DNA of 64,000 nucleotides from a virus. Location of the stretch: IMG/VR virus record IMGVR_UViG_3300021185_002646, positions 16,278 through 80,277 of that record; one strand, written 5' to 3'. Below, one piece after another: positions 45,774 through 64,000 of the stretch; the stretch's first letter is position 1, and every line of letters begins with the position of its first letter. Position numbers and translations under genes: made by a program. The notes under the pieces are model-generated. The model was not told the DNA's origin and did no database searches. It was given only the letters and a program-made list of their open reading frames with translations.

Positions 45774-47108
45774 ATGAGATTAGACAGTTTTACACATAAA
45801 GAAGTACCAGCAGATACAATTTTAAAAGAAATAGGCGTACCTAAAGACGAGCGAGAAGTTATATTAGAATTCTTGCCACTAATACCTGTTGCTTTATGGG
45901 CCGGTGGTGCGGCATGGACTGCCTATGATACATATCAAGCTAAAAAACAATTAGATGCAGGTAAAATAACACAAGCTCAATTTGCCGCTAGAGTAGGTAC
46001 AGATGTAGCAATTGGTGTTGCAGGCGGTGTACTAGGTAAAATAGCTGGTAAAGGCTTTAAAGTAGGTAAAGAAATCTACAAAAGTAAAAAAGCAGCCAGG
46101 GCAGCTCAAAAGAAAACTGCTGATATTCCAACTCCCAAAGATGCAGCAATCCCCCCAACAGGTATCAATGTAGTAGCAAATGCAGCCACAGATACTGCAA
46201 CAGCTTCATCTAAAAAAGTTGTACAAACTGCAAATCCAGGTGATACTATAAAAACTGCCAAAGGCGAATTCCTTGCAGGTGTAGATGGTAAAGCAACTAC
46301 AACTAGAGTAAGTGCTCCTAACGCCTCAGCAGTCAAAGATCAAATATTAAAAATTGCTAATCCAGATTCATCTACTGCGGTAGCAGTAGTAAAACAAACA
46401 GATGATGCAGCCGAGATTGCGGCTAAAAGATCAGCTGCAACTACAGGTGGTGATGATTATGCACGTAACTATGTTAGAAATACTGCATTAGATAGAATGA
46501 AAGATTTACCAGCTGCAGGCCAAAAATCATTTATTAAATCTCTTGAAAAAGCACATCCTGGCATTGCAAAAGAATTAGGTGTTGATAATTTATTAGCACC
46601 AGCGGCTTCAGTGGCAACTAAGACTGCTACTAAAACTACTACACAAGGAATAACTAGAGCACAACGTAACGCTATATCAAACATGGATAACGTACCAACT
46701 TCAAGTGCAACAAGAAACTCTGCATCAGGAACAGGAGCTTCAGTGGTAGCGAAAACAGGTGATGATGTAGCATCAGCAGGTGCAAAGAAAGTTGATAATG
46801 TTACTCCAACTGGTACAGCACTAGCAAAAACAGGTGATGATGTAGCATCAGCAGGTGCAAAGAAAGTTGATAATGCTACTCCAACTGGTACAGCACTAGC
46901 AAAAACAGGTGATGATGTAGCAGCCGCGGCAGCAAAGAAAGCCGACGATGTTAAAGTTAAAGGTAAGGGCAAAGGCGACAAACCTGATAAACCTAATGCT
47001 AAACAAAAAGCTAAAGCAAGAATGCGTGGATACTTTAGTAACTTAAACAAAGGCAACTATTGGGACACAGATTTAACAGGTGTTGCACAAAAATATGGAT
47101 CTTTCTAA
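45774..47108 (+). CDS. Putative virion-internal protein: targeting-like N-terminus, hydrophobic segment, Ala/Thr repeats, C-terminal YWDTDL motif
   Basis: Late promoter ~45746; ILE/FLPLIPVALWAGG; KTGDDVA repeats. Confidence 0.65.
   Translation: MRLDSFTHKEVPADTILKEIGVPKDEREVILEFLPLIPVALWAGGAAWTAYDTYQAKKQLDAGKITQAQFAARVGTDVAIGVAGGVLGKIAGKGFKVGKEIYKSKKAARAAQKKTADIPTPKDAAIPPTGINVVANAATDTATASSKKVVQTANPGDTIKTAKGEFLAGVDGKATTTRVSAPNASAVKDQILKIANPDSSTAVAVVKQTDDAAEIAAKRSAATTGGDDYARNYVRNTALDRMKDLPAAGQKSFIKSLEKAHPGIAKELGVDNLLAPAASVATKTATKTTTQGITRAQRNAISNMDNVPTSSATRNSASGTGASVVAKTGDDVASAGAKKVDNVTPTGTALAKTGDDVASAGAKKVDNATPTGTALAKTGDDVAAAAAKKADDVKVKGKGKGDKPDKPNAKQKAKARMRGYFSNLNKGNYWDTDLTGVAQKYGSF
46752..46950 (+). 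repeat. In-frame 75-bp tandem repeat (~2.5 copies; AKTGDDVASAGAKKVDN.TPTGTAL)
   Basis: Direct repeats visible in DNA and protein. Confidence 0.9.
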
Positions 47109-49364
47109 ATGCTTATTAATGAAGTACTTATATATGAAGAACGATTAAATGCAAAGCCTATCATTAGTCCTGCTATAACAACTCTCGACAAAGTATTCAA
47201 AGACAACAATCACGAAATGCGTATAGTAGGTGGTGCAGTAAGAGATATTGCATTAGGTAAATCACCCAAAGACATTGACTTTGCCACAGACGCTACTCCA
47301 GACGAAATGATGGCTATACTTGATAAAGCAGGTATTAGACACAAACCTACAGGATTAGAACACGGTACTATTACTGCAATCCTAAACAACGAACCATTTG
47401 AAATCACAACACTAAGAGCAGATACAGAAACTGATGGCAGACATGCCAAAGTAGAGTTTGTTAAAAGTTGGGAAGAAGATGCTAAACGCAGAGACTTAAC
47501 ATACAATGCTATGAGCATGGACATTGAAGGTAATGTTTATGACTACTTTGGCGGTATGGATGACTTACAAGATAAAGTAAGTAAGTTTGTTGGCGATGCA
47601 GAAGAAAGAATTACAGAAGATTATTTACGCATATTGCGTTACTTCCGTTTCCAAGGTAGACTATCAAAACCTACCTGGGATGGTGATACACTAGAAGCAA
47701 TTACAAAACACGCCAAAGGACTATCCGGCATTAGTGCCGAGAGAATATGGGCAGAAATGGGCAAAGTACTTTCAGGACAGAATGTTGCAAGTGTAGTATC
47801 AATGATAGAAAAAACAGGTGTAAGCAAAGTTATTGGGTTATCCACTAACAATGTAAACAGTGTTAAAGACAAGAGTAACCCCGTCTTAGCGTTAGCACAA
47901 TTGGATAATAGCGTAGATCTTGCTAAACGTTGGAAGTTTAGTAACAACGAAACAGAATTATTAAACTTTTTAGTTAAAAACAAAAACAATCCACTTGATC
48001 AAAAGAAAGTGGAAGATATGATTGCTGATGGAGTTGATAAAGACTTAATATCAGCACTAGCAACAATGCAAGGCAAAAAAGTAAACACTGATGCAGAAGT
48101 TCCAAACTTTCCTGTAACAGGAGCAGACTTAATTGCTAAAGGTATGAAGCCAGGACCAGAAATGGGTGCAACACTAAACAAATTAAAACAACAATGGAAA
48201 GCAAGTAACTTTACTGCTACAAAAAATGATTTATTAAAAGAAGATGCAGATTTATCCACTGAACGAGGTAGATTAGAATATTATCTAAAAAGGCCTATCC
48301 CAGAAGGAATGTTGGTTCGTTTATATAAATTAGGAAAATTCCATCAAGGAGCAGATCCATTAGCAGAGATAATTCCAGAACGTAATGGAGGATTTGCATT
48401 ACATCCTGATAAATGGGAAAGCACATTTTACAGTTTAACAAACAAAGATTTTAAAAAGATAGGCTATTACAAACCTATTATAATAGAAGCACCAGCAAAC
48501 ATGATTGTTGCTGATATGGCCATTGCAAATCAATTTTATAGAACAGATGATCCTAACGAACGCAATAGACTTGCAAACGCATACAAAGACAGTATGGGTA
48601 AAGATGTTTCTAGTATGAAAATGCCAGAAGTTATTTTACCAAGTGTAACAATGGAAAGTTTATTTGAAGATTTAGATCCCAAATCAGAACTATATGTAGA
48701 CATGGATGGAGTACTAGCAGACTTCTTTGGTGTATGGAATAAAATGATGGGTGTTAAACACTGGAAGGATATTCCAGACATAGATAAAGCATTACAAAAG
48801 ATCAAAGACACAGATGACTTTTGGATTAACTTGCCAATGACACCTAATGGAAAAAGTTTGCTAAACGCAATTAAAAAATTTAAAGGAAAGTATAATATAT
48901 TAAGTGCACCGCTTCCAGGTGATCCTAATTCAGAACCACAAAAACGTGCATGGATTAAAAAGCATTTAGGTATGTTCCCACCAGCAAAAATTATTATTGA
49001 TCACAACAAAGCCGCATATGCCAAGCAAGCAGATGGAACTCCAAACGCATTAATTGATGACTTTGGAGAAAACATTAGTAAATGGCGCAGTGCAGGTGGT
49101 GTTGGAATACAACACAAAGATATAGAAGTAGGAGATACTATTTCTAAGTTAGCAAAAGAATTAGAAGATGGACAAGAACCAGTAGAAGAAAACTTTGCTG
49201 ACGGTAAGAAAAAAGGCAAAAGCAGACCAGGGCGTGTAAAACGTAGTGGTGCTAGTTGTAACGGTAGCGTAACAGAACTTAGAGCAAAAGCAAAAAAGGC
49301 AAGCGGTGAGAAAGCAAAAATGTATCACTGGTGTGCTAACATGAAAGGTGGCAAAAAGAAATGA
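47109..49364 (+). CDS. cca: Polyprotein: CCA-adding tRNA nucleotidyltransferase + unknown domain + HAD 5'(3')-nucleotidase + small basic domain
   Basis: VGGAVRD, DIDFAT, EITTLR, RRDLTYNAM, EDYLRILRYFRF; YVDMDGVLADF...LIDD...W...GG.GI. Confidence 0.88.
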   Translation: MLINEVLIYEERLNAKPIISPAITTLDKVFKDNNHEMRIVGGAVRDIALGKSPKDIDFATDATPDEMMAILDKAGIRHKPTGLEHGTITAILNNEPFEITTLRADTETDGRHAKVEFVKSWEEDAKRRDLTYNAMSMDIEGNVYDYFGGMDDLQDKVSKFVGDAEERITEDYLRILRYFRFQGRLSKPTWDGDTLEAITKHAKGLSGISAERIWAEMGKVLSGQNVASVVSMIEKTGVSKVIGLSTNNVNSVKDKSNPVLALAQLDNSVDLAKRWKFSNNETELLNFLVKNKNNPLDQKKVEDMIADGVDKDLISALATMQGKKVNTDAEVPNFPVTGADLIAKGMKPGPEMGATLNKLKQQWKASNFTATKNDLLKEDADLSTERGRLEYYLKRPIPEGMLVRLYKLGKFHQGADPLAEIIPERNGGFALHPDKWESTFYSLTNKDFKKIGYYKPIIIEAPANMIVADMAIANQFYRTDDPNERNRLANAYKDSMGKDVSSMKMPEVILPSVTMESLFEDLDPKSELYVDMDGVLADFFGVWNKMMGVKHWKDIPDIDKALQKIKDTDDFWINLPMTPNGKSLLNAIKKFKGKYNILSAPLPGDPNSEPQKRAWIKKHLGMFPPAKIIIDHNKAAYAKQADGTPNALIDDFGENISKWRSAGGVGIQHKDIEVGDTISKLAKELEDGQEPVEENFADGKKKGKSRPGRVKRSGASCNGSVTELRAKAKKASGEKAKMYHWCANMKGGKKK

Positions 49365-49522
49365 GCAAACAAAATTTAACAAAAGAAGAACTTAAACATT
49401 ATATTAAAAAACACAAAGAACACGAAGCAAACAAAACAAGTACAAACAAAAGAAATAAATACTGGAAAGAATACTTTATACCTACTAGAACAGAAACTAG
49501 TTTTAATATGAATAACTTTTGA
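49361..49522 (+). CDS. Small basic hypothetical protein (53 aa), not in ORF track
   Basis: ATGA overlap. Confidence 0.5.
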   Translation: MSKQNLTKEELKHYIKKHKEHEANKTSTNKRNKYWKEYFIPTRTETSFNMNNF

Positions 49523-49543
49523 TATAAAATTAGGAAATAAAAA

Positions 49544-50458
49544 ATGAAAATAGATGATATCATAAATGAAAGAATAACAAGACCAGAAGAGCTTAAAGAT
49601 AACGATCCGTCTTTATGGAAAATACTTAAAAAAATGTTCACATCAAATAATTTAGGTACTGATGATAGAAAATCTAGACGAAATAAACTAGATGATATTG
49701 AAACACGCAGAGCTCAAAGAATTAGACAACGTGATAAGGTTGATAAAAGAATTAGAAGAGACAATGCAGAAAAACAAGATCGAGTAGACAGAGAATTAAA
49801 CAAAAGAGAAAAAGCGAGATGGGATGGTGAAGACGAAATTGCTGATAAGATAGCACAAGAGTTGTTTGGAAAAAATGCTCACGAGCTTGGTGATTTAGAT
49901 CGTGCAAATGTTATTAGAACTTCCAGGCATGTTGTAGACCATGTAAGAAGATTTGGTACAAAGGTCTTCGATGATCCAAATTATGTAGCTGACTTTAAGA
50001 AAAAGTATCCACAAGGTTTAATCCCAGCGATTGGAAAAAACTTAGATGGCACTGATGCAGAACCAGATTATAGTTATTTGAATCCAAAAAAGAGAGGGCA
50101 AAAATACAGCCATCCAGCATTTAGTTTTAGATTTGACCAACCAGCGCCTGATGGAACAGGGCTTGCAACCTATCAAGGGTATGCATCTGCAACAGGTGAC
50201 GGCTATGCAACACCTAACCATGTTAAACATGATCTAGGTATAGAATTTGAACCAAGATCAACAATTTATAGATCAAATACTAATTATGCAAATAGTGAAA
50301 GAGATGAAAGAATTGCCACTGGAAAAGCCAATATTAAAAATATAGAAATACAAAATAGAATTAATAAAGCAACAACAGATACTCCTACTGATAACACTCA
50401 GAAGAAATTTGCAAAGGATATTATGCAGAATAATACAGGTGATAATCAAAAGAAATGA
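49544..50458 (+). CDS. Hypothetical protein with targeting-like N-terminus (MKIDDIINE)
   Basis: 304 aa, highly charged. Confidence 0.7.
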   Translation: MKIDDIINERITRPEELKDNDPSLWKILKKMFTSNNLGTDDRKSRRNKLDDIETRRAQRIRQRDKVDKRIRRDNAEKQDRVDRELNKREKARWDGEDEIADKIAQELFGKNAHELGDLDRANVIRTSRHVVDHVRRFGTKVFDDPNYVADFKKKYPQGLIPAIGKNLDGTDAEPDYSYLNPKKRGQKYSHPAFSFRFDQPAPDGTGLATYQGYASATGDGYATPNHVKHDLGIEFEPRSTIYRSNTNYANSERDERIATGKANIKNIEIQNRINKATTDTPTDNTQKKFAKDIMQNNTGDNQKK

Positions 50459-50718
50459 ATGTAAGCAAAGAAAACATTTGGCATTTTACTTGTGATTACT
50501 GTCAAGGTTTTTGGAGTGTTGCAACAATGGATGATTGGAAACCAAAAGAGTTATACTGTACACATTGTGGAAAGCTAAATAAATATGACAATGGAAAATT
50601 TAGTGCCGCAAAGTTTAAAAAAGAAGAATGGTGTTCATGTGGACACAGAATTATAGATTGCGATTGCAAGCCAGGATGCGAATGTGGATGCAATAAACAA
50701 TACTTAGGATCATACTAA
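50455..50718 (+). CDS. Cys-rich protein (zinc ribbon plus metallothionein-like tail)
   Basis: CDYC...CTHC; CSC...CDC...CECGC. Confidence 0.65.
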   Translation: MNVSKENIWHFTCDYCQGFWSVATMDDWKPKELYCTHCGKLNKYDNGKFSAAKFKKEEWCSCGHRIIDCDCKPGCECGCNKQYLGSY

Positions 50719-51227
50719 TGAAAGCAAATGAATTTATAAAATTATTAAAAGAAGAATATGATATAGGTCAAGATGAATTCCAAGAAGCATATTCTGATGA
50801 GATAGTTACAGTGGTAACCAATGTCTGGAAAAGAAAATACCCAGATGTTGAATTACATAACCCAGAAGATGAGTTTGGGGCTGGCCATACATTTGAAACA
50901 AAAACACCGTCACCTGAAAAGGGTGGGTTTACATTAAGTTTTGGTTCTCAATTATATCACACCGAAGATGTACATGAATCACCTGAGAACCTGTTTTATA
51001 TAGTTGTCTCAAATGCGTATTCAGGCAACTTCAAAGGTGTTGTACTAGACATGTTAGAGAGTGTATATAAACTTATGGAAAGCAAACTACAAGAGTATGC
51101 ACCTGGATCTAATAGATCTGAATTTAAAAGAATGATTGGCATTCATCATAATAGAAATCTAGAAGCATGGTCACATATTGCAACAAAACTAGGTGCAGTT
51201 GAAGAACCAAGGGGACGCGACGAATGA
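50718..51227 (+). CDS. Hypothetical protein with targeting-like N-terminus (MKANEFIKLLKEE)
   Basis: 169 aa ORF. Confidence 0.7.
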   Translation: MKANEFIKLLKEEYDIGQDEFQEAYSDEIVTVVTNVWKRKYPDVELHNPEDEFGAGHTFETKTPSPEKGGFTLSFGSQLYHTEDVHESPENLFYIVVSNAYSGNFKGVVLDMLESVYKLMESKLQEYAPGSNRSEFKRMIGIHHNRNLEAWSHIATKLGAVEEPRGRDE

Positions 51228-51448
51228 AAATGGACGACATATACAAATTAAAATATCTAGCAGGTATAACTGATAAACAAGGAAATACACTAGGTGAGAA
51301 AGCACCAGAAGGAAGTAATATTAGTATTACTGGATCTGAAAAAGCACGAATTCAACGTGAAAAGAAAATACAGCCCGGAACAGATGCATGGTTTAAACTT
51401 TGGTTTGCCAAGCCTAGGTTAACAGGCGAAAAACCAACAGGAAAATAA
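51224..51448 (+). CDS. Conserved small phage protein (IQPGTDAWFKLWF)
   Basis: 74 aa ORF. Confidence 0.7.
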   Translation: MKMDDIYKLKYLAGITDKQGNTLGEKAPEGSNISITGSEKARIQREKKIQPGTDAWFKLWFAKPRLTGEKPTGK

Positions 51449-51449: not shown

Positions 51450-51812
51450 ATGGGAACAGAATTAATTATATTGTTTGCTTTAATGTGCAAACACGCAGTA
51501 GCCGATCTAGCCGTACAGTCATTTAGAGTACCATCTAAAAAGAGGCTTTGGTTAAACAAAGGATTACATTTACATGCAATGGATCATGCAGTATTAACAT
51601 TTTTAGTATTGTTATTCTGGGTTAATCCTTGGTTAGCATTGGGTTATGCACTAATTGATTATGTTGCACACTGGCACATAGACTGGGCTAAATCAAATAT
51701 ATTATGGATATTTGGAATATCCAGAGAAGGCAAGGGGTTTTGGCGTCTACAGACAGTAGACCAAATACTACATTATGCTACATATATGTTTATAGTATCA
51801 TTAATGGTGTAA
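51450..51812 (+). CDS. DUF3307-like membrane protein
   Basis: KHAVAD...Q, LHLHA..H, HWHID..K, DQILH. Confidence 0.75.
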   Translation: MGTELIILFALMCKHAVADLAVQSFRVPSKKRLWLNKGLHLHAMDHAVLTFLVLLFWVNPWLALGYALIDYVAHWHIDWAKSNILWIFGISREGKGFWRLQTVDQILHYATYMFIVSLMV

Positions 51813-51829: not shown

Positions 51830-52291
51830 ATGAGAATAAATGAAATAGATTGTTGGGATGGTTACAAAAAAGATGGAACTAAACCCGGCACAGGAAAAAA
51901 CAAAGGTAAGCGTGTAAACAATTGCGTCAAAGAAGACGAAGTTACACTAGATGAATCACAAGATTTCCATGAAGAGTTTGGATATCTAGGATACAGTATT
52001 GACGAAAGTGATCTTTTTGAAGCGGAATATCAAGGACGAAAAGTTAAACTAAACAAACCAATGCGTGGTGATGTTAAAAAGTTTAAAGTATATGTCAAGG
52101 ACCCTAAGACTGGAAACGTTAAGAAAGTAAACTTTGGACATGGTGGAACAAGTGCTAAATCAAAAGGTGAAAAGACTATGAAAATTCGTAAGTCTAATCC
52201 TAAAGCTCGCAAGAGTTTCCGTGCAAGACATAACTGTGATAATCCTGGACCTAAAACAAAAGCTCGTTACTGGTCATGCAGGAAGTGGTGA
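51830..52291 (+). CDS. Conserved basic phage protein (start moved to MRINEIDCW)
   Basis: CWDGYK; AEYQGRKV.LNKP; ARKSFRARHNC...ARYWSC..W; TAAATA-5nt-ATG. Confidence 0.75.
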   Translation: MRINEIDCWDGYKKDGTKPGTGKNKGKRVNNCVKEDEVTLDESQDFHEEFGYLGYSIDESDLFEAEYQGRKVKLNKPMRGDVKKFKVYVKDPKTGNVKKVNFGHGGTSAKSKGEKTMKIRKSNPKARKSFRARHNCDNPGPKTKARYWSCRKW

Positions 52292-52297: not shown

Positions 52298-55200
52298 ATG
52301 AGAATAACTGAAGTAGACAAAGGTTTAACACAAAGTGAACTGGATCAATTAGAAGTTTTTGCAGATAGATTATTTGCGAAAGTAGGTATTGATGTAGAGT
52401 TTACCCGTCACTTCTTAGATCGTGTAAATGACGAACGCAATGTAAAACAAATCACAGCAAGCGAACTCACGAGATTATTTAAACAAGAATACAAACGTTG
52501 GGGCAAACCTATTGCACAAATGGGCCCAGACGCAGAAGCAGTACTAAAAGACTTAGCAACAGACGTAAACATACCATTTGCTTTACGTTGGGATAAAGAA
52601 AACAACGAATTAGATCTTATCGCTAAAACAGTAATGCGTAAGAAAAATTTTAAAACATCTAACAAAGAGTTTGAAATACAATCAGCTGATTACTCGTTAG
52701 ATAATATACAACACAAAAAAGTATTTGAATCAATAAAACAACTTAACGAAGCAGGCCCGGCAGCATTGGCAGTACCAGTTGGTATTGCGGCATGGAATGC
52801 CTATGTATATTCCAGATATGCTCAAGCAGCCTGGTTTACCGCAAAATTTACTGCAACAACAGCCGCAGCATATATTGTTGCTAATAAATCTGATTTTGGC
52901 TGGCTTGAACGAAAGATGGCTTCATCGGCTATTCTTGCATATCAACTATGGGACAAAGTTAGAGGCGTACAAGATATGAGCAGTGTTCAGTGGAGAGACA
53001 CTAATGCATCAGCAATGGCAGCCGGACAACAAGGAGCTGAAAATCCATTAGGTCCTAGGCCAACTGCAGATATGAACGGTGATCCATATGGTATTATAAA
53101 TGCTAGACAACAAGTAGCCGCAGGACAGTTAGGTGCACAAGCACGTTTAGATTTAGCGTTAGCAGATTTGGCTGCTGATCAAAAAGCATGGGATATTGAA
53201 TCTAATAAAAATCAAGACAAGGACGCAAGCAACGGCGCAATGGCATCAGGTCAAACAGGTGCTACTTTAACACAATTAACATTAGATGCTAGTGAACAAT
53301 TAAATGGAGAGCTAGCCGCAGGTGTAAATGAATTAACTGCAAATGCAAATATAGAAACTGAAATAGATAACGAAGAATTAGATAAAATAGCAATAGCAAC
53401 TGCTGATGCTCAAAATTTAGTAAGTGATAATAATCTTATAAAACTAGCAACTACAATAACACAAGCAAAACAAAACGATGATAGTGATGCACAACTTATT
53501 TCATTAGCAACTAACATTGCAACAGCCCAACAGGCAGCAGACAAAGTAACTGCACAAAATACAGCCAGTGATGCTAAACTAATTGCACTTGGACAACAAG
53601 TAGCACAACAACAAGCAGATAAGTTAGCAACAGAATTAAGTGATGCAAAATTAATTGCACTTGGACAACAAGTAGCACAACAACAGTCAGATGCTAGAGC
53701 AACAGAATTAAGTGATGCAAAATTAATTGCACTTGGACAACAAGTAGCACAACAAAAAGCAAATGCGGCTGCAAATGCAGTCAGTGATGCTAAACTAATT
53801 GCACTTGGACAACAAGTAGCACAACAACAAGCAGATGCTAAAGCAACTGCACAAAATACAGCCAGTGATGCTAAACTAATTGCACTTGGACAACAAGTAG
53901 CACAACAAAAAATAGATACACAGAATGCAACCAGTGATGCTAAACTAATTGCACTTGGACAACAAGTAGCACAACAACAAGCAGATGCTAAAGCAACTGC
54001 ACAAAATACAGCCAGTGATGCTAAACTAATTGCACTTGGACAAGCATATGCAGATGCTAAATCAGATGCTAAAGCAACTGCACAAAACCAGGCAAGTGAT
54101 GCCAAACTAATTGCGTTAGCAAAAGCAGTAAGTGATGTAAATGATGTTGAACTTAATGTTCCAGCAGATGATGGCATAGGAAAAGACATAGATATTACAA
54201 TACCAGACACAGGCACTATTACAAGACCTGATGCACTTGATTTACCAGGTGCAGGAACAACAACTGGTGGCATAGATACAACTGGTGCTACAGCACAAGG
54301 AAATGCAGCGGCGGCGGCAGCGGCGGCACTAGCAACGGCAAAAGAAAAAGCAATTGCAACTGCTAAAGCAAATACTAAAAATAATAACACCGGTAAAAAG
54401 AAAACTAAGAAATTTGATTGGGGATTCGGAGATGGTGATTATTGGGATACAGATCTATATAGATGGCAACAAAAATATGGAACATTTGAAAATCAAAACC
54501 TAATTAAAAAATATTTTATGATTAATGAAGGTGGAGCAATGCCAGGCGTTGGTGCTATTCATATTGATGAGATTACTCCAACATTACAAGCATTAGAAAA
54601 GTCAATAGGTGTTGACTTAATGAACAACACATTGGGTAGTGTAGGTAAAAGACAATTCAGTGGAGACATTGATGTAGCACTACAAATACAACCAGAAGAA
54701 TTACCAGCATTTATAGAAGAACTTAAAAAGAATCCACTAGTACTAGACATTGCTAAAAGCAGTGTTATTATGACAAAAGTTAAAATTATGGACTTTGATC
54801 AATCTAAGTCAGACGGGAGACCTCGTACAGGATTTGTACAAGTAGACTTTATGCCAGGCGACCCAGGTTGGATGAAAACTTATTATCACTCACCAAGTGA
54901 AACAGAATCAAAATACAAAGGCGTATATCGTAACATTATGATTGCTACATTGGCAGCAGTACACAACAGAGATCAAAGTGATGCTAAATTAGATGACGGT
55001 AGAGCTATGGAAGAAAGACGCTTTATGTGGAGTCCAACTGAAGGATTGTTGCGTGTACAACGTACACCTGTTCCTAAGAAAAGTGGCGAAGGTTACACTA
55101 AAAAGAATAAAAATGAAACAATAGACGGTCCTTGGAAACAACCAGATGAGATTGCAACACAACTAGGTCTAGACAGTGGAAAAGATTTAAACAGTTTTGA

Positions 55201-55327
55201 ATCATTACTAGCCGCAGTTAAAAAGAATTGGACCAAAGAAAAATTACAATATGTTATAGATGGATTCAAGCAAAACAATGTTGTACAAGACATTGGCGTG
55301 CCTGAGGAATTAGACGATGTTAATTAA
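52298..55327 (+). CDS. Polyprotein: HFLDR domain + hydrophobic/repeat region + YWDTDL motif + Pol-beta-type nucleotidyltransferase
   Basis: C-terminal LGSVGK...SGDIDV...VQVDFM; SDAKLIALGQQ repeats; begins MRITE. Confidence 0.75.
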   Translation: MRITEVDKGLTQSELDQLEVFADRLFAKVGIDVEFTRHFLDRVNDERNVKQITASELTRLFKQEYKRWGKPIAQMGPDAEAVLKDLATDVNIPFALRWDKENNELDLIAKTVMRKKNFKTSNKEFEIQSADYSLDNIQHKKVFESIKQLNEAGPAALAVPVGIAAWNAYVYSRYAQAAWFTAKFTATTAAAYIVANKSDFGWLERKMASSAILAYQLWDKVRGVQDMSSVQWRDTNASAMAAGQQGAENPLGPRPTADMNGDPYGIINARQQVAAGQLGAQARLDLALADLAADQKAWDIESNKNQDKDASNGAMASGQTGATLTQLTLDASEQLNGELAAGVNELTANANIETEIDNEELDKIAIATADAQNLVSDNNLIKLATTITQAKQNDDSDAQLISLATNIATAQQAADKVTAQNTASDAKLIALGQQVAQQQADKLATELSDAKLIALGQQVAQQQSDARATELSDAKLIALGQQVAQQKANAAANAVSDAKLIALGQQVAQQQADAKATAQNTASDAKLIALGQQVAQQKIDTQNATSDAKLIALGQQVAQQQADAKATAQNTASDAKLIALGQAYADAKSDAKATAQNQASDAKLIALAKAVSDVNDVELNVPADDGIGKDIDITIPDTGTITRPDALDLPGAGTTTGGIDTTGATAQGNAAAAAAAALATAKEKAIATAKANTKNNNTGKKKTKKFDWGFGDGDYWDTDLYRWQQKYGTFENQNLIKKYFMINEGGAMPGVGAIHIDEITPTLQALEKSIGVDLMNNTLGSVGKRQFSGDIDVALQIQPEELPAFIEELKKNPLVLDIAKSSVIMTKVKIMDFDQSKSDGRPRTGFVQVDFMPGDPGWMKTYYHSPSETESKYKGVYRNIMIATLAAVHNRDQSDAKLDDGRAMEERRFMWSPTEGLLRVQRTPVPKKSGEGYTKKNKNETIDGPWKQPDEIATQLGLDSGKDLNSFESLLAAVKKNWTKEKLQYVIDGFKQNNVVQDIGVPEELDDVN
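53567..54120 (+). repeat. In-frame tandem repeat SDAKLIALGQQVAQQ (8 copies, last two partial) with variable linkers
   Basis: AGTGATGC.AAA.TAATTGCACTTGGACAACAAGTAGCACAACAA repeated. Confidence 0.92.
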
Positions 55328-56045
55328 CGAAATAACAAAAGCGAATCTAAATGAAAGTAATGTTATTAGAGATGTTGCTAAAGAACTTAATATACCATTT
55401 GCAATAGCTATGGAACTTTCTAATAAAGAAAGTTCTCAAGGTCAGTTTGATAAAGATGGTAATACTATTGTAGGTGATAAAAACTTAAAAAATAAAGCAT
55501 ATGGAATGTCTCAGGTTAGATTGCCTGCATTAAAAGATGTCAATAGGTTATATGGAACAAACTATTCATTAGATGATATAAAAAATGATGCAAATATAAA
55601 TGCTAAGGTAGGATTATTGTATTTTAAAGCACAAGGTGATTTTTATGGTGCAACAGATTATATAGAACAACTTAGAGGATATAACGGCGGTCCTAACGCA
55701 ATTAAAGGTGATGTAGCATCAGCAAATAGTTATGCAAATGATATTTTTGATAAAGCAGTGATGAATTACAATGGCGCAGATGCGTTAGAAAACTTTGGGC
55801 TAAACGAAGCTAGTCCTTGGGAATTACTTAAAAGAAAAGTAACACCAGTAGTACAAAAAGACAAATACCAACGTGTTGCAGAAAAGCTACATGCAATGTT
55901 ATTACGCAAACAAAAAGAAAACGGCGGTGTATTTAGACATGCACTAGGCTGGTACACATATAACATTGGTACTTCATATATAGGCATTGATCATAAAGTT
56001 CTTCATCAATATTACTTAGATAATTTTGATGCAGTTGTTGATTAA
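55317..56045 (+). CDS. Lytic transglycosylase (SLT) domain protein with targeting-like N-terminus
   Basis: ESS, AYGMSQV, YNGGP motifs; begins MLINE...LNE. Confidence 0.8.
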   Translation: MLINEITKANLNESNVIRDVAKELNIPFAIAMELSNKESSQGQFDKDGNTIVGDKNLKNKAYGMSQVRLPALKDVNRLYGTNYSLDDIKNDANINAKVGLLYFKAQGDFYGATDYIEQLRGYNGGPNAIKGDVASANSYANDIFDKAVMNYNGADALENFGLNEASPWELLKRKVTPVVQKDKYQRVAEKLHAMLLRKQKENGGVFRHALGWYTYNIGTSYIGIDHKVLHQYYLDNFDAVVD

Positions 56046-56098: not shown

Positions 56099-57277
56099 AT
56101 GACAGACAAATATTGCGTATATACAAACAATTTTACATTCGTTGACAATGACGGATATGTAGCATTGTGTTGTAAAAATCTAAAGAACAAACTTTCACAA
56201 TATCATATCAAAGACTACAAATTAAGTGAAATTTGGAACAGTCCAGAAATGCATAGTGTTAGGGCAGAAATTGCCTCAGGTGGAGAACCCAATGGTTGTT
56301 TTAAATGCTATGATCCTGAAAGAGATGGAGTGCGTAGTTTCAGACAAAAAGCACTAGGCATGATTAACAATGGTGTTCCATTTCAAGATGAAAAAATACA
56401 CGCACTTGATCTTAGATTAGGTAATGTGTGTAATTTATCTTGTGTAATGTGTTTTGCTGGTAACAGTAATAAAATATTACATCAACACAAATCAATGGCA
56501 AAGCATTTTAATTGGAAAGAAGGTCGCTTAGAAAAAGAAGCAGAAAAATATCACAAAAGCAATTACGATTGGAGTGATGATCCACAAGCATGGGATAATA
56601 TTATTTCAAGTGTAGATAAGAATTTAAAACATGTATACTTAGCAGGCGGTGAGCCTTTTTATCTTAAAAACTTTCCTACTACAGTAGAACGATTAGGCAG
56701 TTTGGCTCCGGGTGCTAATTTTGTTATTAATACAAATGGCACAAGACTACTAAGAGAAAAAGACTTAAAACAATTAAAAACAGTAGAAAATGTATTCCTA
56801 AGATTTAGTGTAGATGGTTGGGGTGCCGCTGATGAGTGGACTAGGCAAGATACAGTATGGGAAGAAAAACTACAAGTAATGGATCAATACTATAATCATT
56901 TTAAATTAGCTGTATGGGATATTACTGCTAACAGTTTAAGTGTAAGACACATACCTAAACTTATTACACATTTATGGAATAATTATCCAAATGCAAAAGT
57001 ACAAATACGACCAGTTGTTAATAAGACAGAAGTACTGATGGAAAACATTCCTGATAGATTTAAAAAAGAAAGTTTAGCATTTTTTGAAAAACATAAAAAT
57101 AAACTAGAAGGTGTTGATCATGTTATAAATGAAATGCGTAAACCATTTAACAACGATATGAAACGTAAACACACAGTAAGACATTTTGTAAACTATTACG
57201 ATACGCATGGTGTAGTTACATTAGAAAGTTTTGATCCTGAACTAGCAGAATGGATTAATAGTGATGCAGAAGAATAG
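56099..57277 (+). CDS. Radical SAM/twitch-SPASM protein
   Basis: CNLSCVMC, AGGEPF, NTNGT; sigma70 promoter at 56051. Confidence 0.9.
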   Translation: MTDKYCVYTNNFTFVDNDGYVALCCKNLKNKLSQYHIKDYKLSEIWNSPEMHSVRAEIASGGEPNGCFKCYDPERDGVRSFRQKALGMINNGVPFQDEKIHALDLRLGNVCNLSCVMCFAGNSNKILHQHKSMAKHFNWKEGRLEKEAEKYHKSNYDWSDDPQAWDNIISSVDKNLKHVYLAGGEPFYLKNFPTTVERLGSLAPGANFVINTNGTRLLREKDLKQLKTVENVFLRFSVDGWGAADEWTRQDTVWEEKLQVMDQYYNHFKLAVWDITANSLSVRHIPKLITHLWNNYPNAKVQIRPVVNKTEVLMENIPDRFKKESLAFFEKHKNKLEGVDHVINEMRKPFNNDMKRKHTVRHFVNYYDTHGVVTLESFDPELAEWINSDAEE

Positions 57278-58481
57278 TTTTTGTACAATTCCTTGGATAC
57301 ATGCCGCTACTAAAACAAATGGATCTAGCAGAGTATGTTGTTTAATGAGTAATAGCTCTGGCGGAGAAACAGGGCATAACTTTAAACAACACAGTGTAGA
57401 AGAAATTCACAATAGCGAGTTTTCACGTAAAATACGTAAGCAATTTTTAGCAGGCGAGAAACCAACAGAGTGTAATACATGTTGGGTTAAAGAAGATAAT
57501 GGTGGTTACAGTAGGCGTACATTTACAAATAAGATTTATAAACACTTTGACTACGATAAAGCAGTACAAGTAACAAAATCAGATGGTAGCACAACACAGA
57601 TGCCAGTATATTGGGATTTAAGGTTTGGTAACTTATGCAATTTAAAATGTGTAATGTGCGGACCTCAAAGTAGTAGTATGTGGTACAAAGACTGGGCGAA
57701 AGTTCACTCCACTGATCATTTTTACGACAGCGGTACAAAAATTGACATTTCGGACGGAAACAAACAAAATAGGAAAGATCGTGAATCGGATTATGATTGG
57801 TGGGAAAGTGAACACTTTTGGGAACAGTTAGATAAGCACAAGGAACAACTACAACATGTTTACTTAGTAGGTGGTGAGCCTATGTTAGTAGAGCCTCATT
57901 ACAAATTTTTGCAAAAGCTAATAGACAGTGATATAAGTAAAAATGTAGTGTTAGAGTACGATACGAATATCACAAATGTACATCAACGTGCAATTGATCA
58001 ATGGAAGCATTTTAAAAAACTAATGCTTAGATGTAGTATAGATGATTTTGGTGAGCAAAATGATTATATACGTTTTCCTAGTAAATGGTATAAACTAAAT
58101 GAAAATATAGAACAAATTAATGCATTACTACCTGATACAGAAATAGAAATAAGTATCACATGGCAAATGCTTAATGCATTTACAGTATTAAACTTATTAG
58201 ATCATTTTAAACAGTATCATATTAATATAAGAATATTATCTATTCCTGATCATTTAGATGCAAAGCATTTACCAAAGCAGGCAAAATTAGATATTATAAA
58301 TATGTATACTAATTCAGTACATAAAGATAAGCTATCCCATTTAATAAACTATCTGAACAATACGTTAGATTATGATAGCAATCCATATGATTGTATAGTT
58401 TTCTTAGAAAAATTAGATGAAATACGAGGTACAGACTGGAAAAAAACGTTTATTGAATTACATAAATCGATAAATACTTAA
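57261..58481 (+). CDS. Radical SAM/twitch-SPASM protein
   Basis: CNLKCVMC, VGGEPM, YIRFPS.W. Confidence 0.9.
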   Translation: MMQKNSFCTIPWIHAATKTNGSSRVCCLMSNSSGGETGHNFKQHSVEEIHNSEFSRKIRKQFLAGEKPTECNTCWVKEDNGGYSRRTFTNKIYKHFDYDKAVQVTKSDGSTTQMPVYWDLRFGNLCNLKCVMCGPQSSSMWYKDWAKVHSTDHFYDSGTKIDISDGNKQNRKDRESDYDWWESEHFWEQLDKHKEQLQHVYLVGGEPMLVEPHYKFLQKLIDSDISKNVVLEYDTNITNVHQRAIDQWKHFKKLMLRCSIDDFGEQNDYIRFPSKWYKLNENIEQINALLPDTEIEISITWQMLNAFTVLNLLDHFKQYHINIRILSIPDHLDAKHLPKQAKLDIINMYTNSVHKDKLSHLINYLNNTLDYDSNPYDCIVFLEKLDEIRGTDWKKTFIELHKSINT

Positions 58482-58495
58482 AACAGAGGTATACT

Positions 58496-59392
58496 ATGAA
58501 AATAAATGATATAACAAATGAAAACAGTGGTGTCAAGAGAGTCAATACAGGCATTGATATGAAAGCTGAACTGGCTAAACGAGCTGCACAAATATCTTCG
58601 CCAGGAACTAATCCAACCTTAAACACTAGAACAAATGTTACTAGAAATAGCAATTCAGGTACAGGTACCACACATAAAACATTTAGTAAGTATATATCTA
58701 AAACAGGCGACTTAGGTGGAACATCATTAAGTAAAGTAAACAATATAAAAAAATCAGCAACTGGAGCCACAGGCACTAGCACAAAACGATTTGTTAGACC
58801 AGGTGGAGCAGGAACACAAAGCGTAACAGATGTTGCTACTGGACAAACAACTAATACCAAGTTTCAACTAAAAGGACCACAAAGTTGGGCATATGATAAA
58901 CCAAAACTAAATGCTTCTAAGAAAATAAAAGAAGATGGCGTTATAGTTCCAGGTGTTAATACTACAGTAGATGTTAAGCCAGGGCAAACTGAAAAAGAAG
59001 CAGCCAAGTTTTTTGGAAAAGGCAAACCAGCAGAATTACACAAAAAAGCACGTAAGAACAGTAATGCACATAACTTATATAATTTAGGATTAGTATCTGA
59101 AAATAAGAAAAAAGATGATAAGCCAAGTGACATTGAAGGCTTTGATCCGCAAACTGCAATGGATATTAAAAAACTAAAAGCAAAATATCCACACGCTGAT
59201 AATATAATGTCAGCACTAATGGCTCAAACAAGTCAAACTTTACAAAACCAATACAAGGGTGATCAACGCAGAGACGAACAAGACAAAAAACAAGTTGAGC
59301 AAGATAAAAAGCATAATACAAGATTCCGAGAGCTTGAACAGAGAATATGGAATATAGTTATGAAAAACGATCTCAAAGAGGGTAAAAAATAA
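58496..59392 (+). CDS. Hypothetical protein with targeting-like N-terminus (MKINDITNE) and internal IKE/VSE junctions
   Basis: Late promoter ~58470; EDGVIVPGVNTTVDV module. Confidence 0.7.
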   Translation: MKINDITNENSGVKRVNTGIDMKAELAKRAAQISSPGTNPTLNTRTNVTRNSNSGTGTTHKTFSKYISKTGDLGGTSLSKVNNIKKSATGATGTSTKRFVRPGGAGTQSVTDVATGQTTNTKFQLKGPQSWAYDKPKLNASKKIKEDGVIVPGVNTTVDVKPGQTEKEAAKFFGKGKPAELHKKARKNSNAHNLYNLGLVSENKKKDDKPSDIEGFDPQTAMDIKKLKAKYPHADNIMSALMAQTSQTLQNQYKGDQRRDEQDKKQVEQDKKHNTRFRELEQRIWNIVMKNDLKEGKK

Positions 59393-59395
59393 ACT

Positions 59396-59701: not shown

Positions 59702-59886
59702 AAAGAGATTACGATAAGTTAATGGATTCAAGAATGGATTCTACCGAAGACCAATTTAAGCAATTAAATCTACTATTACACAAAATTAATGTAATGGGAA
59801 ATTGGCATCAGCGTCATGACATAGTTGACATGTCATTCAAAGCAAAAAAACTAGTCGAAAGCCTAGAAGAGAAATTTAACCTATAA
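59698..59886 (+). CDS. Hypothetical protein
   Basis: 62 aa ORF, overlapping start. Confidence 0.6.
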   Translation: MKRDYDKLMDSRMDSTEDQFKQLNLLLHKINVMGNWHQRHDIVDMSFKAKKLVESLEEKFNL

Positions 59887-60077
59887 TGAAAATAAAAGAT
59901 ATATTAAAGTTACCTAAAATAGAAATAGGCGATGAAATACTTGTAGGAAAATTTAAAAATCGTAAAGCAGTAGTTACTGGCTTTACAACAGATGAAAACA
60001 ACCAGCCAGTGTTAAAAACAACCAAAGGCGATCAGAAATTATTCAAACCAAGAATAGTTAAATTAATGGATAAGTAA
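59886..60077 (+). CDS. Small conserved phage protein (IEIGDEILVGKFKN)
   Basis: 63 aa; begins MKIKDIL. Confidence 0.7.
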   Translation: MKIKDILKLPKIEIGDEILVGKFKNRKAVVTGFTTDENNQPVLKTTKGDQKLFKPRIVKLMDK

Positions 60078-60078
60078 T

Positions 60079-60459: not shown

Positions 60460-60467
60460 ATACAGTT

Positions 60468-60701: not shown

Positions 60702-60704
60702 AAT

Positions 60705-61466: not shown

Positions 61467-61497
61467 AGGTTTCTAATCGAATTAGATAAATACTTGT

Positions 61498-61704
61498 ATG
61501 AAGATTACGGACATAATAACCGAAGATGCAGACGCAGGAAGTACAATGGCAGGTAATATTGCTAGTGTTTCTTTTCCTATGACGCCCGGAACTAAGAAAA
61601 AAGACGCTCGTAAGGCAGTTGATCCTAACGGATACTTAGGTAATGGTAAACGTAAAAAGCAAAGCGTAGGTTATAATGAAGAAGTAAAGGTTATAAGAAG
61701 ATGA
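61498..61704 (+). CDS. Small protein with targeting-like N-terminus (MKITDIITE/DADAGST.AGNIAS)
   Basis: TAAATA-5nt-ATG. Confidence 0.7.
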   Translation: MKITDIITEDADAGSTMAGNIASVSFPMTPGTKKKDARKAVDPNGYLGNGKRKKQSVGYNEEVKVIRR

Positions 61705-61997: not shown

Positions 61998-62002
61998 CGA
62001 CT

Positions 62003-63052
62003 ATGGATACAAAGCACCCAACATATATAAAAATTAATAATACTTTTGATCGTGTTATGGACGAAATTAGCAAATTTGAAAAAGTATTTCAACCAGGAGG
62101 CAAGCTAGAGCAAGCCATCCTAGAAATTGATGGAGACCCATCATATTTAAAAGACTTAGCAACAGCACTTGAAGAAACATACGAGGTTTTACAAGAAGCA
62201 CACTACGGTACATTAGGTCACGTAGTAGATGAGCAACTAAGCAAAAAGAAAAAAATTACACCAAGCACACCAGTTGATATGGTAGCAGAAGGCGTACTAG
62301 ATGGCGCAGACGAAGATGGATTTATGGCTCGTAGCCAATTATACTTCCTAGCCAGAGATGCAATTAAATTACACGGTATTGTAAAAGACCAAGATGATTT
62401 AGCACCATGGGTTTCAAGTAAAATTGCACAAGCTTCAAAGGATATGGATTCAGTTCGTCGTTACACTGAATACAATGCCATGAAAGCTGAAATCGAACCA
62501 GAAGCACATACACACGAAATGCCACAAGAGATGCCACAAGAGATGCCACAAGAGATGAATGAAGGTACTATGATTGGCGGACTAATGAAATATGATGGTC
62601 AACCAGAAGGCGAATATGCAGACGCAGTAGCAAGATATAAAGAGTTTATGTCTCAACCTCGTCCACCAAGTGAAGCAACAACTGATATGGTACAAGGCTT
62701 TATATTTGACGATGAGTTATTAGATAGCCTAGGCGAAGCCGAAGATGGTAATGATGTACTTGACGTTAGATACATTGTTCAAAGCAGACTAGAAGATTTC
62801 TTTGGTCCAGACTTTGAACTAGGCGAAAGTGTTTATGAAGCAAAAGCAGAAATGTGCCCAGAAGCATGTTGTGGAAAGCCTATAACAGAATGCAAATGTG
62901 GACCAGATTGCGAACACTGTGATTGCCATTCAAAGAACTCAGCAATGAACGAAGGTATGGAATTTGATGAAAAACGCAATGATGATTTACAAGTTATAGC
63001 AAAAGACATGTTTAAGCATGCATTAGCAAACGCTAAGAAAAAGGTGAAATAA
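62003..63052 (+). CDS. Acidic multi-module protein with EMPQ repeats and a Cys-rich module
   Basis: MARSQLY...L.PWV.SKI module; CPEACCGKPITECKCGPDCEHCDC. Confidence 0.7.
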   Translation: MDTKHPTYIKINNTFDRVMDEISKFEKVFQPGGKLEQAILEIDGDPSYLKDLATALEETYEVLQEAHYGTLGHVVDEQLSKKKKITPSTPVDMVAEGVLDGADEDGFMARSQLYFLARDAIKLHGIVKDQDDLAPWVSSKIAQASKDMDSVRRYTEYNAMKAEIEPEAHTHEMPQEMPQEMPQEMNEGTMIGGLMKYDGQPEGEYADAVARYKEFMSQPRPPSEATTDMVQGFIFDDELLDSLGEAEDGNDVLDVRYIVQSRLEDFFGPDFELGESVYEAKAEMCPEACCGKPITECKCGPDCEHCDCHSKNSAMNEGMEFDEKRNDDLQVIAKDMFKHALANAKKKVK

Positions 63053-63054
63053 TT

Positions 63055-63633
63055 ATGTTTACTAAAGCCGATTTTGAAAAGAACGAAGATAATAATTATC
63101 ATACAGAAAATGGTATTGAAATGGCAAAACATTTTGGTACTGAAGATGAACAAAAATTAATGTTACAAATTCAAAAAGATCATTATGCTCGTGGGCATAT
63201 TAATCCAGATGAAATTGAAGCACGTTCAGGTATCGTTAAAAAATATTGGCATATGTTAGAAAGTATTAGTGAAGGTGTTAGCGATGATGAAATTGCAAAA
63301 CATTACAGAATGTTAAAACTTCCAAGCATGAAGTCATGGGAAAAACTAGTTAAAATGGGCCTTCCTAAACAAAAGGCTAATGAAGACGAAGGCTCAGGAC
63401 ATGATAGACAATATTATAGAGATCTAGACAAAGGCCAACTTAATCATACTAAATCAATGTTAATGAAAACTGCAGCTCAATTAGAAGTAGCAATTAATCA
63501 AAGATCAAAATTCAGTAGAGAATTAATGGGAAATGGCGATAAAGCCGGTACAGGCGATCTGTATAATATGTTAGACAAACTCAACAAATTAATTGAAGAG
63601 TGGGATAACGAAACAGAATTATACGGAATGTAG
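63055..63633 (+). CDS. Hypothetical protein
   Basis: 192 aa; FEKNEDNNYHTEN. Confidence 0.7.
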   Translation: MFTKADFEKNEDNNYHTENGIEMAKHFGTEDEQKLMLQIQKDHYARGHINPDEIEARSGIVKKYWHMLESISEGVSDDEIAKHYRMLKLPSMKSWEKLVKMGLPKQKANEDEGSGHDRQYYRDLDKGQLNHTKSMLMKTAAQLEVAINQRSKFSRELMGNGDKAGTGDLYNMLDKLNKLIEEWDNETELYGM

Positions 63634-63643
63634 GAGAGCTATT

Positions 63644-64000
63644 ATGAGATTAAGCAATTTAGAAGAAGGATCATACAACAATGCTCCAGAGCCAAAGAAA
63701 ATGCAAGTAACAGTTGCTGATAAAAAAGCTAACACTGAAGCATGGAAACGTTATCAAGCAGGCGACTCAAGATACGAATTTAAAAATCCAACAACCGAAG
63801 CTGAACAAGAAAAAGCATTTTTAAGAAGAATGCAACCAGGACAACCAGACATTATAGAAGATGCTAAAGGCAGAGATGAAAGTGTAAAAAACATTGACGA
63901 GATTTTAGTAAAAATGGGTGCTGATGCTCCAAGCGATATCATTGCTGATATTATGCATTGGATTGATGCACACCCAGGTGAAAACTTAGAAGACTTAATA
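63644..64000 (+). CDS. Hypothetical protein, 3'-truncated (MRLSNLEEG...)
   Basis: AGGAG SD; frame open to the window end. Confidence 0.7.
   Translation, partial: MRLSNLEEGSYNNAPEPKKMQVTVADKKANTEAWKRYQAGDSRYEFKNPTTEAEQEKAFLRRMQPGQPDIIEDAKGRDESVKNIDEILVKMGADAPSDIIADIMHWIDAHPGENLEDLI

Follow-up and report, generated by a model that had tools for sequence, protein, structure and literature searches.

The capsid-targeting sequence of phage T4 was described decades ago, chiefly from Alt and from a handful of small internal proteins. According to the T4 record, ipII and ipIII begin with MKTYQEFIAE/A, ipI with MKTFKEF...ITE/A and gp24 with MAKINELLRE/S (here and below a slash stands for the actual or presumed cut). 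In IPIII, targeting requires residues 4 and 7 and processing requires residues 8 and 10 (PMC9026906), the prohead protease gp21 cleaves after L/I-X-E (PMC9026906, PMC5694885), and it has been proposed that T4-like phages use the targeting sequence to bring a variety of proteins into the head (PMC9026906). This text deals with a stretch of 64,000 nucleotides (the window, i.e. bases 16278-80277 of the 80,277-bp viral contig IMGVR_UViG_3300021185_002646) in which about 10-13 otherwise unrelated proteins, clustered in the part from 45774 to 64000, appear to carry an N-terminal propeptide of the T4 type, here called the leader, while the longer of these proteins are jointed by the motif (L/I/V)-x-Glu. 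By analogy with T4 we consider it likely that the leader proteins are loaded into the head and that both leaders and joints are cut there by a gp21-family protease.

The likeness to IPI-III, Alt and gp24 lies in a short N-terminal propeptide on unrelated proteins, in the spacing of its hydrophobic residues and in its terminal (L/I)-x-Glu. It extends to the relatives of the contig, in which we find a gp21-family S77 protease together with a capsid propeptide and a scaffold that are rich in the cut site. In MKIDDIINE, MKITDIITE and MKIHDILEE the hydrophobic residues are at 3 and 6, P3 (the L/I/V position) is at 7 and P1 (the Glu) at 9. Length, hydrophobic spacing and terminal (L/I/V)-x-E thus agree with the T4 capsid-targeting propeptides, as the earlier note on this DNA had proposed, even though the leader is one residue shorter than in T4, sometimes has only 4-5 residues, and also accepts V at P3. 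There are larger differences as well. The T4 internal proteins are single, small and basic, whereas the presumed cargo here consists mostly of recognisable enzymes, concatenated up to a length of 1009 aa, with a site at every joint, and fusing and splitting between relatives; the present system is moreover known from sequence alone.

The jumbo phages phiKZ, 201phi2-1 and SPN3US also have many head-internal proteins that are cut after Glu by a gp21-related protease, and for propeptides of their type a role in directing proteins to the prohead has been suggested (PMC5694885, PMC9026906). However, their motif is S/A-x-E and their propeptides are mostly long (>100 residues), whereas the leaders described here are of the T4 type, with 5-14 residues, and the phiKZ-like S/A-x-E does not occur in the nucleotidyltransferase contexts discussed below, where P3 is L/I/V in 48 out of 48 cases. 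Polyvalent proteins carry several effector-type domains on one polypeptide; the prediction is that they are packaged, reach the host together with the DNA and are possibly cut into active pieces (PMC5512222). The proteins starting at 47109 and 52298 resemble them in combining multiple unrelated domains, but polyvalent proteins typically have a peptidase of their own (MPTase) or a fusion to MuF or portal proteins (Iyer et al. 2017), none of which was found here; the present proteins would instead be processed by the prohead protease at their short joint motifs. A full-text literature search returned no paper tying capsid-targeting sequences to marine or pelagic phages or to jumbo phages of the PA5oct/Atu_ph07 type, and they are not mentioned in the paper on the marine phage Melnitz, which has homologues of some of the modules described below. 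Already published are the principle of the targeting sequence and gp21, the idea that varied proteins are loaded by it, and head-delivered polyvalent proteins. New here are the lineage itself, how numerous and how largely enzymatic the tagged proteins are, and the protease site as a universal joint for the fusion and fission of cargo genes.

As for its source, the window comes from an uncultured marine jumbo myovirus with a genome of ~340 kb. This phage belongs to the wider T4 superfamily, is only distantly T4-like, and has its relatives in the groups of Atu_ph07, Phosso, 121Q and PA5oct. The contig is ~23% complete by CheckV, which implies a genome of ~340 kb, its GC content is 30-39%, and nearly all its genes lie on the plus strand. 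It has a closely syntenic sister contig (G001, 79 kb), whose DNA polymerase is 44-48% identical to those of the jumbo phages Phosso, Atu_ph07 and 121Q; single modules also match Melnitz (Kyanoviridae) and PA5oct. A much longer relative (G004, 342 kb, 92% complete) has 53 of 121 proteins in common with the 80-kb contig.

Leader sequences

The typical leader reads M-K/R/L-I-x-D/E-I/V-I-x-E and is 5-14 residues long, with two hydrophobic positions three apart followed by (L/I/V)-x-Glu, and the proteins that bear it are unrelated in their Pfam and PHROG content. The pattern ^M[KRL][ILA].[DE][ILVMFWY] was tested on the 111 plus-strand open reading frames (ORFs) of the 80-kb contig, the expectation being taken from the contig's own position-specific N-terminal frequencies. 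It matched 11 ORFs against 1.05 expected (binomial p 1e-8), and none of 5000 column shuffles reached 11 matches (the maximum was 6). At internal Met residues the strict pattern occurs in 2 out of 565 cases, one of them being the likely true start at 51830, an internal ATG of a longer ORF that begins at 51704. Note that positions 2 and 3 taken alone are matched in ~34% and ~32% of the contig's N-termini. The matches are unevenly spread, with 8 of 23 ORFs in 45774-64000 as opposed to 3 of 88 elsewhere (Fisher p 1.2e-4), and in the part of the sister contig that does not overlap the window a single ORF out of ~95 is leader-positive; this low frequency rules out a genome-wide effect of start-codon context.

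The earlier note had counted at least 12 late proteins with this start and called for a test of enrichment against all ORFs of the phage. An enrichment is borne out by the counts just given, and coordinates and N-termini were verified for the starts at 47109, 49544, 50718, 51830, 52298, 55317, 58496, 59886, 61498 and 13527 (sequences in Table 1) as well as for the looser matches at 45774, 61701 and 63644; a further leader-type start, not listed before, lies at 51224. Two members are nevertheless doubtful: 59886, which has no (L/I/V)xE site after its start motif, nor any over its full length, and whose N-terminus is conserved in relatives as part of a small domain, and 61701, which is a weak match.

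The codons of the leaders differ synonymously (AAA/AAG, ATA/ATT/ATC, GAT/GAC), which argues that conservation acts at the protein level. We also considered the leader as a DNA-level or translational feature and rejected this, given the synonymous codon variation and the recurrence of the motif at internal joints.

Several proteins have their (L/I/V)xE sites confined to the N-terminus, the background frequency of [LIV]xE being 1.5-1.7% per residue. The 49544 protein has a single site (INE, residue 9) versus ~4.9 expected, and its leader is identical in a homologue that is 57% identical overall (locus L002). The two sites of the 45774 protein (residues 19 and 32) both fall in the first 32 of its 444 residues. 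Other leaders vary in relatives: the homologue of 50718-51448 in locus L092 combines the same domain with another leader tail (MRANEFITENN), that of 61498 in G004 reads MKISEIISE/NFAG, and the MRL..L.E/G type seen at 63644 resembles the leaders MRLRHLFE/G, MRLYNLFE.. and MRLHDLFE.. of kinase and other homologues.

Some leader genes share an upstream element, GATAAATA, of which there are 13 copies between 16461 and 61492 of the window, all on the coding strand (~7 would be expected over both strands) and most of them 5-30 nt upstream of a start codon. It precedes hsp20 (18715), virion genes (40705, 43037, 43455) and the leader genes 45774, 51830, 58496 and 61498, with copies at 45745, 51817 (5 nt upstream of the start), 58469 and 61485; the variant TATAAATA lies at 13514 before the kinase gene. 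We regard GATAAATA as a candidate promoter resembling the T4 late type, and its position, or that of TATAAATA, just upstream of several leader genes suggests that these may be expressed late.

Module joints

The probable cargo, as judged from profiles and folds, comprises a CCA-adding enzyme (CCA; Pfam PolyA_pol E 1e-35, phrog_2244 E 5e-64), an NT5C/HAD nucleotidase (NT5C; Pfam E 1e-6, phrog_2643 E 1e-25), the zeta-like kinase of 13527 (Pfam Zeta_toxin E 6e-13, AAA_33 E 3.5e-12), a Pol-beta-like nucleotidyltransferase, an SLT-like muralytic domain (lytic transglycosylase) and others; two repeat proteins with hydrophobic segments and several proteins to which profiles assign no function probably belong to it too. 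The SLT-like domain has a Pfam E-value of 0.0015, below the Pfam cut-off, and in tblastn its protein matched virion lysozyme-like proteins at E 2e-4. For the nucleotidyltransferase module an AlphaFold2 model (predicted local distance difference test, pLDDT, 86) has its best PDB matches in Pol beta/lambda (E ~1e-4, template modelling score, TM, 0.33-0.37), and because of a GS...DxD motif a Pol-beta-like fold is plausible. Among the domain assignments behind the activities named in the earlier note, those for tRNA repair, nucleotidase and kinase stand, while the muralytic one stays below the cut-off and nucleotide transfer is assigned by fold only. Pfam gave nothing usable for the unknown domain (residues 379-502 of the 47109 protein), the 52298 N-terminal domain, the ASPW module of 55317, the C-terminal module of the 58496 protein and the 62003 and 63055 proteins, and neither Pfam nor PHROGs showed a peptidase, MuF or portal domain in the cargo proteins.

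Two comparisons bear most directly on the joints. In the first, the CCA module was followed through 53 related loci. Where another module follows, the CCA end is an (L/I/V)-x-E joint in 43 out of 43 loci (LL[KG]E in 42; in the remaining locus LNE, a little further along), whereas in the unfused forms, in which the ORF stops there, Glu stands at the joint position in 0 out of 7. What follows the joint is variable: the unknown domain in some loci (LLKE/[ND]xDL[SG]T[EQ]RGRLEYY), NT5C directly (LLKE/NIKSLFE/DLDP), the basic tail directly (LLGE/NFADGK), other modules (LLGE/SKVINE/AVHKF... or, in one locus, ..NNLNE/GVGRIVKGVNTT, related to the DGVIVPG module of the 58496 protein), or a stop codon. 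Conversely, locus L092 has a form without CCA, with its own leader MRLHDLFENN, then LSTERG... and the rest of the 47109 protein, and in the sister contig the basic tail stands behind a different domain (joint AVNE/NFADGK).

The second comparison concerns the nucleotidyltransferase module of the 52298 protein, which has >1200 metagenomic homologues. Most are standalone proteins with tiny leaders (MILNE/GG, MINE/GG, MTNKLFE/GG, MKRLSE/GG); others are fused behind repeat proteins, behind a 52298-type N-terminal domain (joined straight to it in P0017, ..ESLIME/GG) or behind unrelated sequences, and the module is found at 82% identity on a 322-kb ENA contig (P0006). In 48 distinct upstream contexts P1 is Glu throughout (48/48) and P3 is L in 30, I in 17 and V in one, while P2 varies over 10 residues and P4 over 14.

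The remaining modules follow the same course. For the 13527 kinase, 79 related loci provide ~20 different upstream contexts, every one of which reads (L/I/V)-x-E/(G/A) before the conserved domain, and the site is kept both behind a short leader and inside longer proteins. At the position of 55317, loci L091 and L092 have an 88-aa gene with the leader and the C-terminal module only (MLVNEVTTNE/ASPWELL...), and loci L087-L090 have the SLT module behind the leader MKIFDIINE (MKIFDIINE/NSNRSDIIR) and with another C-terminus. A relative of 51830 reads MKIDEFVTE/AEQRLDPSCWKGY (L036), and in G004 the 51830 domain follows a HIGH-motif nucleotidyltransferase within one protein, the joint between them containing an entire internal leader (...SEGTE-MKISDIVNE/AKGPCWKGY). 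Melnitz gp31 is 68% identical to residues 7-128 of the 52298 protein. Taken together, domains occur alone or fused, in different orders and with (L/I/V)-x-Glu joints, which agrees with the modular polyproteins, shuffled at the same junctions, of the earlier note. The coordinates of its seven junctions (48243, 48669, 49191, 52751, 54530, 55809, 58934) are correct, and related contigs confirm five of them as module boundaries (LKE/DADL to within four residues). For LNE/AGPA only the end of the upstream domain was confirmed, and for IKE/DGVI the support is that a different upstream module gives an equivalent joint in L091 (...PTPVKE/DGVIVPG).

Whole leaders that still include a Met are found, apparently as vestiges, at three joints, i.e. 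MKMPEVILPSVTMESLFE/DLDP (MKMPEV..LFE/DLDP, from residue 503 of the 47109 protein), MINE/GG (52298) and MKISDIVNE/AKGP (G004). A gene boundary shows the opposite state: the stop codon of 45774 abuts the ATG of 47109 (..QKYGSF, stop, MLINE...), and this is the split form of the fused ...QKYGTFENQNLIKKYFMINE/GG joint of the 52298 protein. Within presumed mature modules (L/I/V)xE occurs at 0.0124 versus 0.0161 per residue. The CCA, NT5C and SLT modules are almost free of internal sites, and the unknown domain contains four. CCA homologues in Atu_ph07 and Kabachok are without the 13-17 aa leader, and NT5C homologues on more distant marine viral contigs start at the domain itself (MYIIYCDMDG), also leaderless, which suggests that the leader is an acquired, add-on tag.

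Some further observations concern these modules. The C-terminal ~90 aa of the 51830 protein are widespread, in pelagiphages, in roseophage podo- and siphoviruses and in spindle-shaped viruses of Nitrosopumilaceae ('HVA1 family'); as this reaches beyond T4-like heads, the HVA1-like domain is not specific to them, and only the leader is lineage-specific. The two repeat proteins (45774-47108 and 52751-54529) are built alike: a hydrophobic stretch rich in Ala and Gly, extended tandem repeats, and the conserved terminus YWDTDL...QKYG(S/T)F. The former is a gene of its own; the latter sits as a cassette inside the 1009-aa protein, with a module on either side. A Cys-rich piece of ~30 aa from the 349-aa 62003 protein (62849-62938, residues 283-312) recurs in the C-terminal part of the SLT protein of L087-L090 (6535-6624), and appears to be another shuffled module.

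Protease, virion proteins and neighbouring genes

The earlier note had assumed a gp21-like protease elsewhere in the genome. No Peptidase S77 (PF03420) was found in the 80-kb contig, which covers ~23% of the genome, nor in the further fragments G001 (79 kb), G002, G003 and G008-G011; the related contigs G004, G005, G006 and G007, on the other hand, do have a Peptidase_S77 gene. In G004 the protease is 35% identical to T4 gp21 and the capsid protein 35% identical to gp23, and G007 (99 kb) has the S77 protease on one contig with a leader-bearing CCA enzyme (MRINEVILHEE) that is 77% identical to that of the window. The [LIV]xE sites of the major capsid protein are at 6, 19, 34 and 42 in G004 and at 6, 34 and 42 in G007, with none in the remaining ~345 residues, and in the scaffold protein of both contigs they make up 7.0-7.3% of residues (7.4% in T4 gp22). 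Because of these N-terminal capsid sites and the site density of the scaffold, the protease of this lineage very probably has the specificity (L/I/V)-x-E.

Virion data come from PA5oct, in which a cluster of virion proteins (EST35_0226-0238) was annotated by electrospray ionisation tandem mass spectrometry (ESI-MS/MS). Its gp231, a homologue of the nucleotidyltransferase module, is among the annotated structural proteins; gp237 matches a gene in the first 6 kb of the contig, upstream of the window, and gp234, gp237 and gp238 match genes of G004, all being structural by the same method. One member of the cluster starts with MRLDEI.... The relationship is distant, however (~27% identity), and gp231 has no clear leader.

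Melnitz (EXVC044M, L001, MZ577097.1), a cultured myophage of OM43, has a cluster of leader proteins at 8910-16496. Its T4-like leaders MKKFSEIIE/A, MKKFSELTSELIE/, MKSIVEVTSINEE/ and MLTLINFSKYITE/ precede modules that are homologous to, among others, the nucleotidyltransferase and NT5C. Thus gp18 is a HIGH-motif nucleotidyltransferase starting with MKKFSEIIE/A, and the NT5C-like gp22, which starts with MKSIVEVTSINEE/, matches residues 513-683 of the 47109 protein at 37% identity, in an alignment that runs across the internal leader. Melnitz could serve as an experimental system.

Table 1. Leader-type genes and the modules of the longer proteins (positions in the window, or residues of the protein named)
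Feature	Position	Strand	N-terminus, boundary or basis
Zeta-toxin/AAA_33-type P-loop kinase	13527..14216	+	leader MKIHDILEEQQVLE/G, residues 1-14; outside 45774-64000
444-aa protein, hydrophobic segment and repeats	45774..47108	+	N-terminus MRLDSFTHKEVPADTILKE/IGVPKDEREVILE/F; C-terminus ...YWDTDLTGVAQKYGSF
751-aa four-module protein	47109..49364	+	leader MLINEVLIYEE
47109 protein: CCA-adding enzyme	to residue 378, ...LLKE	+	Pfam PolyA_pol
47109 protein: unknown domain	residues 379-502	+	module comparison
47109 protein: internal leader-like MKMPEVILPSVTMESLFE	residues 503-520	+	motif
47109 protein: NT5C/HAD nucleotidase	residues 521-694, end ...PVEE	+	Pfam NT5C
47109 protein: basic tail NFADGK...	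residues 695-751	+	module comparison
304-aa protein	49544..50458	+	leader MKIDDIINE/R; single site at residue 9
Small leader-type gene, 169 aa	50718-51227	+	leader start MKANEFIKLLKEE
Small leader-type gene, 74 aa	51224-51448	+	leader start MKMDDIY
153-aa protein, C-terminal 'HVA1-like' domain	51830..52291	+	MRINE/IDCWDGY...; phrog_7595 E 4e-14
1009-aa three-module protein	52298..55327	+	leader MRITEV
52298 protein: N-terminal domain	residues 1-151, ...QLNE	+	phrog_23027 (residues 12-123)
52298 protein: hydrophobic and SDAKLIALGQQVAQQ-repeat module	residues 152-744, end YWDTDL..QKYGTFENQNLIKKYFMINE	+	
52298 protein: Pol-beta-like nucleotidyltransferase	residues 745-1009	+	predicted fold
242-aa protein	55317..56045	+	leader MLINEITKANLNE; SLT-like 14-164 (...FGLNE), ASPW module 165-242
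298-aa protein	58496..59392	+	leader MKINDITNE/N; N-terminal module to residue 146 (...KKIKE), DGVIVPGVNTT... 147-298
63-aa protein, doubtful member	59886..60077	+	start motif MKIKDILKLP...
68-aa protein	61498..61704	+	leader MKITDIITE/DADAG; sole (L/I/V)xE site at residue 9
Looser candidate, 98 aa	61701	+	MRADQLE/S; weak match
Looser candidate	63644, runs beyond window end	+	MRLSNLEE/GSYNN; looser match

Leaderless genes are interleaved with the leader genes between 45774 and 64000, namely radical-SAM (56099, 57261), GNAT (60079), zinc-finger and membrane-protein genes, and the leader is likewise absent from 62003 and 63055, which lie between 61701 and 63644. The radical-SAM genes (56099-58481) are a pair of neighbouring paralogues, radical-SAM/SPASM-like, each ~400 aa long and Cys-rich at the N-terminus; >10 more paralogues lie at 43-70 kb of the sister contig, and no member of either set bears a leader. 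Upstream in the window (12904-40063) there are homologues of ClpP, ClpX, ClpA, ClpS and Hsp20, as judged from ORF N-termini and synteny with G004.

Alternative explanations and significance

If the analogy with IPI-III, Alt and gp24 holds, the leader would dock its protein onto the scaffold core while the prohead is being assembled. A cut after Glu by the gp21-family (Peptidase S77) protease would then remove the leader and sever the joints, so that a fused product would be cut back to single modules inside the prohead; with a site at every joint, neighbouring leader-bearing genes could fuse or split freely. The freed modules would stay in the head and leave it with the DNA into the host. All these steps, from docking to ejection, are taken over from T4, and a role of the cargo in host takeover or anti-defence is likewise inferred.

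There are several points that weigh against this reading. The region is not a dedicated cargo island, since leaderless genes stand between the leader genes, and no S77, capsid or scaffold gene was found on the 80-kb contig, so the link to the protease depends on relatives at 68-77% identity. PA5oct gp231 is a distant homologue (27% identity) and does not display the same leader. The depletion of (L/I/V)xE inside presumed mature modules is modest, with four sites in the 379-502 domain, and the joint motifs may in part be left over from leaders that were once fused. Some leaders have 4-5 residues (MINE/GG, MILNE/GG), shorter than any tested T4 targeting sequence, and the motif may there be the cut site alone; and the two leaders that end in TNE (58496; L091/L092) depart from L/I/V by a T at P3. 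For this lineage, finally, packaging and cleavage are argued from sequence comparison.

An explanation close to the one we prefer accepts that the proteins are cut in the prohead and sees in them components of the assembly core or residents of the head, not injected effectors. The T4 scaffold and core proteins gp22, gp67 and gp68 bear the same motif and are degraded, and the repeat proteins (45774; 52298 residues 152-744), the basic tails and the four-site unknown domain look structural or DNA-associated. But CCA, NT5C, the kinase, the nucleotidyltransferase and SLT are recognisable enzymes, three of these modules (CCA, NT5C, SLT) are nearly free of internal sites, and there are precedents for ejected enzymes in T4 Alt and IPI and in the T7 internal core protein with its transglycosylase domain. 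We therefore regard a purely structural role as unlikely, though worth keeping in mind.

Less probable still is that the motifs are relics of fusion or another signal, e.g. an N-terminal tag for ClpXP/ClpAP or for assembly into a structure other than the head. The phage does encode homologues of ClpP, ClpX, ClpA and ClpS (ORFs 12904, 16582, 37811, 19151), Met is kept at some joints, as a recent fusion would leave it, and the absence of protease and head genes from the 80-kb contig would fit as well. Yet an N-terminal degron cannot account for a fixed P3 and P1 with free P2 and P4 at internal joints, nor for a Glu that is present only where a module follows, and the motif is the published specificity of gp21, concentrated in relatives in the capsid propeptides and the scaffold. 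That the shared N-terminus is a mere by-product of initiation or codon preference in an AT-rich genome, with no function at the protein level, strikes us as the least credible of all: MK and MKI starts are indeed common in AT-rich phages, but the count is tenfold above the position-specific expectation, the motif is limited to a subset of genes and varies synonymously, and it recurs at internal joints, kept across >1000 homologues. Both of these last explanations are hard to reconcile with the 48 nucleotidyltransferase contexts and with the difference between fused and unfused CCA. We thus return to loading into the head and cutting by a gp21-family protease as the likely course of events.

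It is possible, though we would stop short of calling it probable, that a widespread group of uncultured marine jumbo phages, and in simpler form cultured marine T4-like phages such as Melnitz, use this grammar of leader and cut site to handle cargo genes as plug-and-play cassettes. Any gene that gained a leader of 5-14 aa would then be loaded, adjacent cargo genes could fuse and split at will as the prohead protease would separate their products again, and the phages would have a large and rapidly changing stock of ready-made enzymes (CCA-adding, nucleotidyltransferase, nucleotidase, kinase, muralytic) that enter the host along with the DNA. If loading and cutting do take place as proposed, natural short tags would be at hand for packaging foreign proteins into large capsids, and the combination of a short leader with (L/I/V)-x-E joints would be a rule for predicting capsid-borne proteins from metagenomes, in which they are otherwise invisible. 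It would also explain why unrelated enzymes are fused in varying order in these genomes, and would point to candidates for early takeover or counter-defence, e.g. a pre-made CCA-adding enzyme that repairs damaged tRNA 3' ends. The grammar of T4 would then be at work far more extensively than in T4 itself, in uncultured jumbo phages that are abundant in the sea, and on recognisable enzymes of nucleic-acid and nucleotide metabolism.

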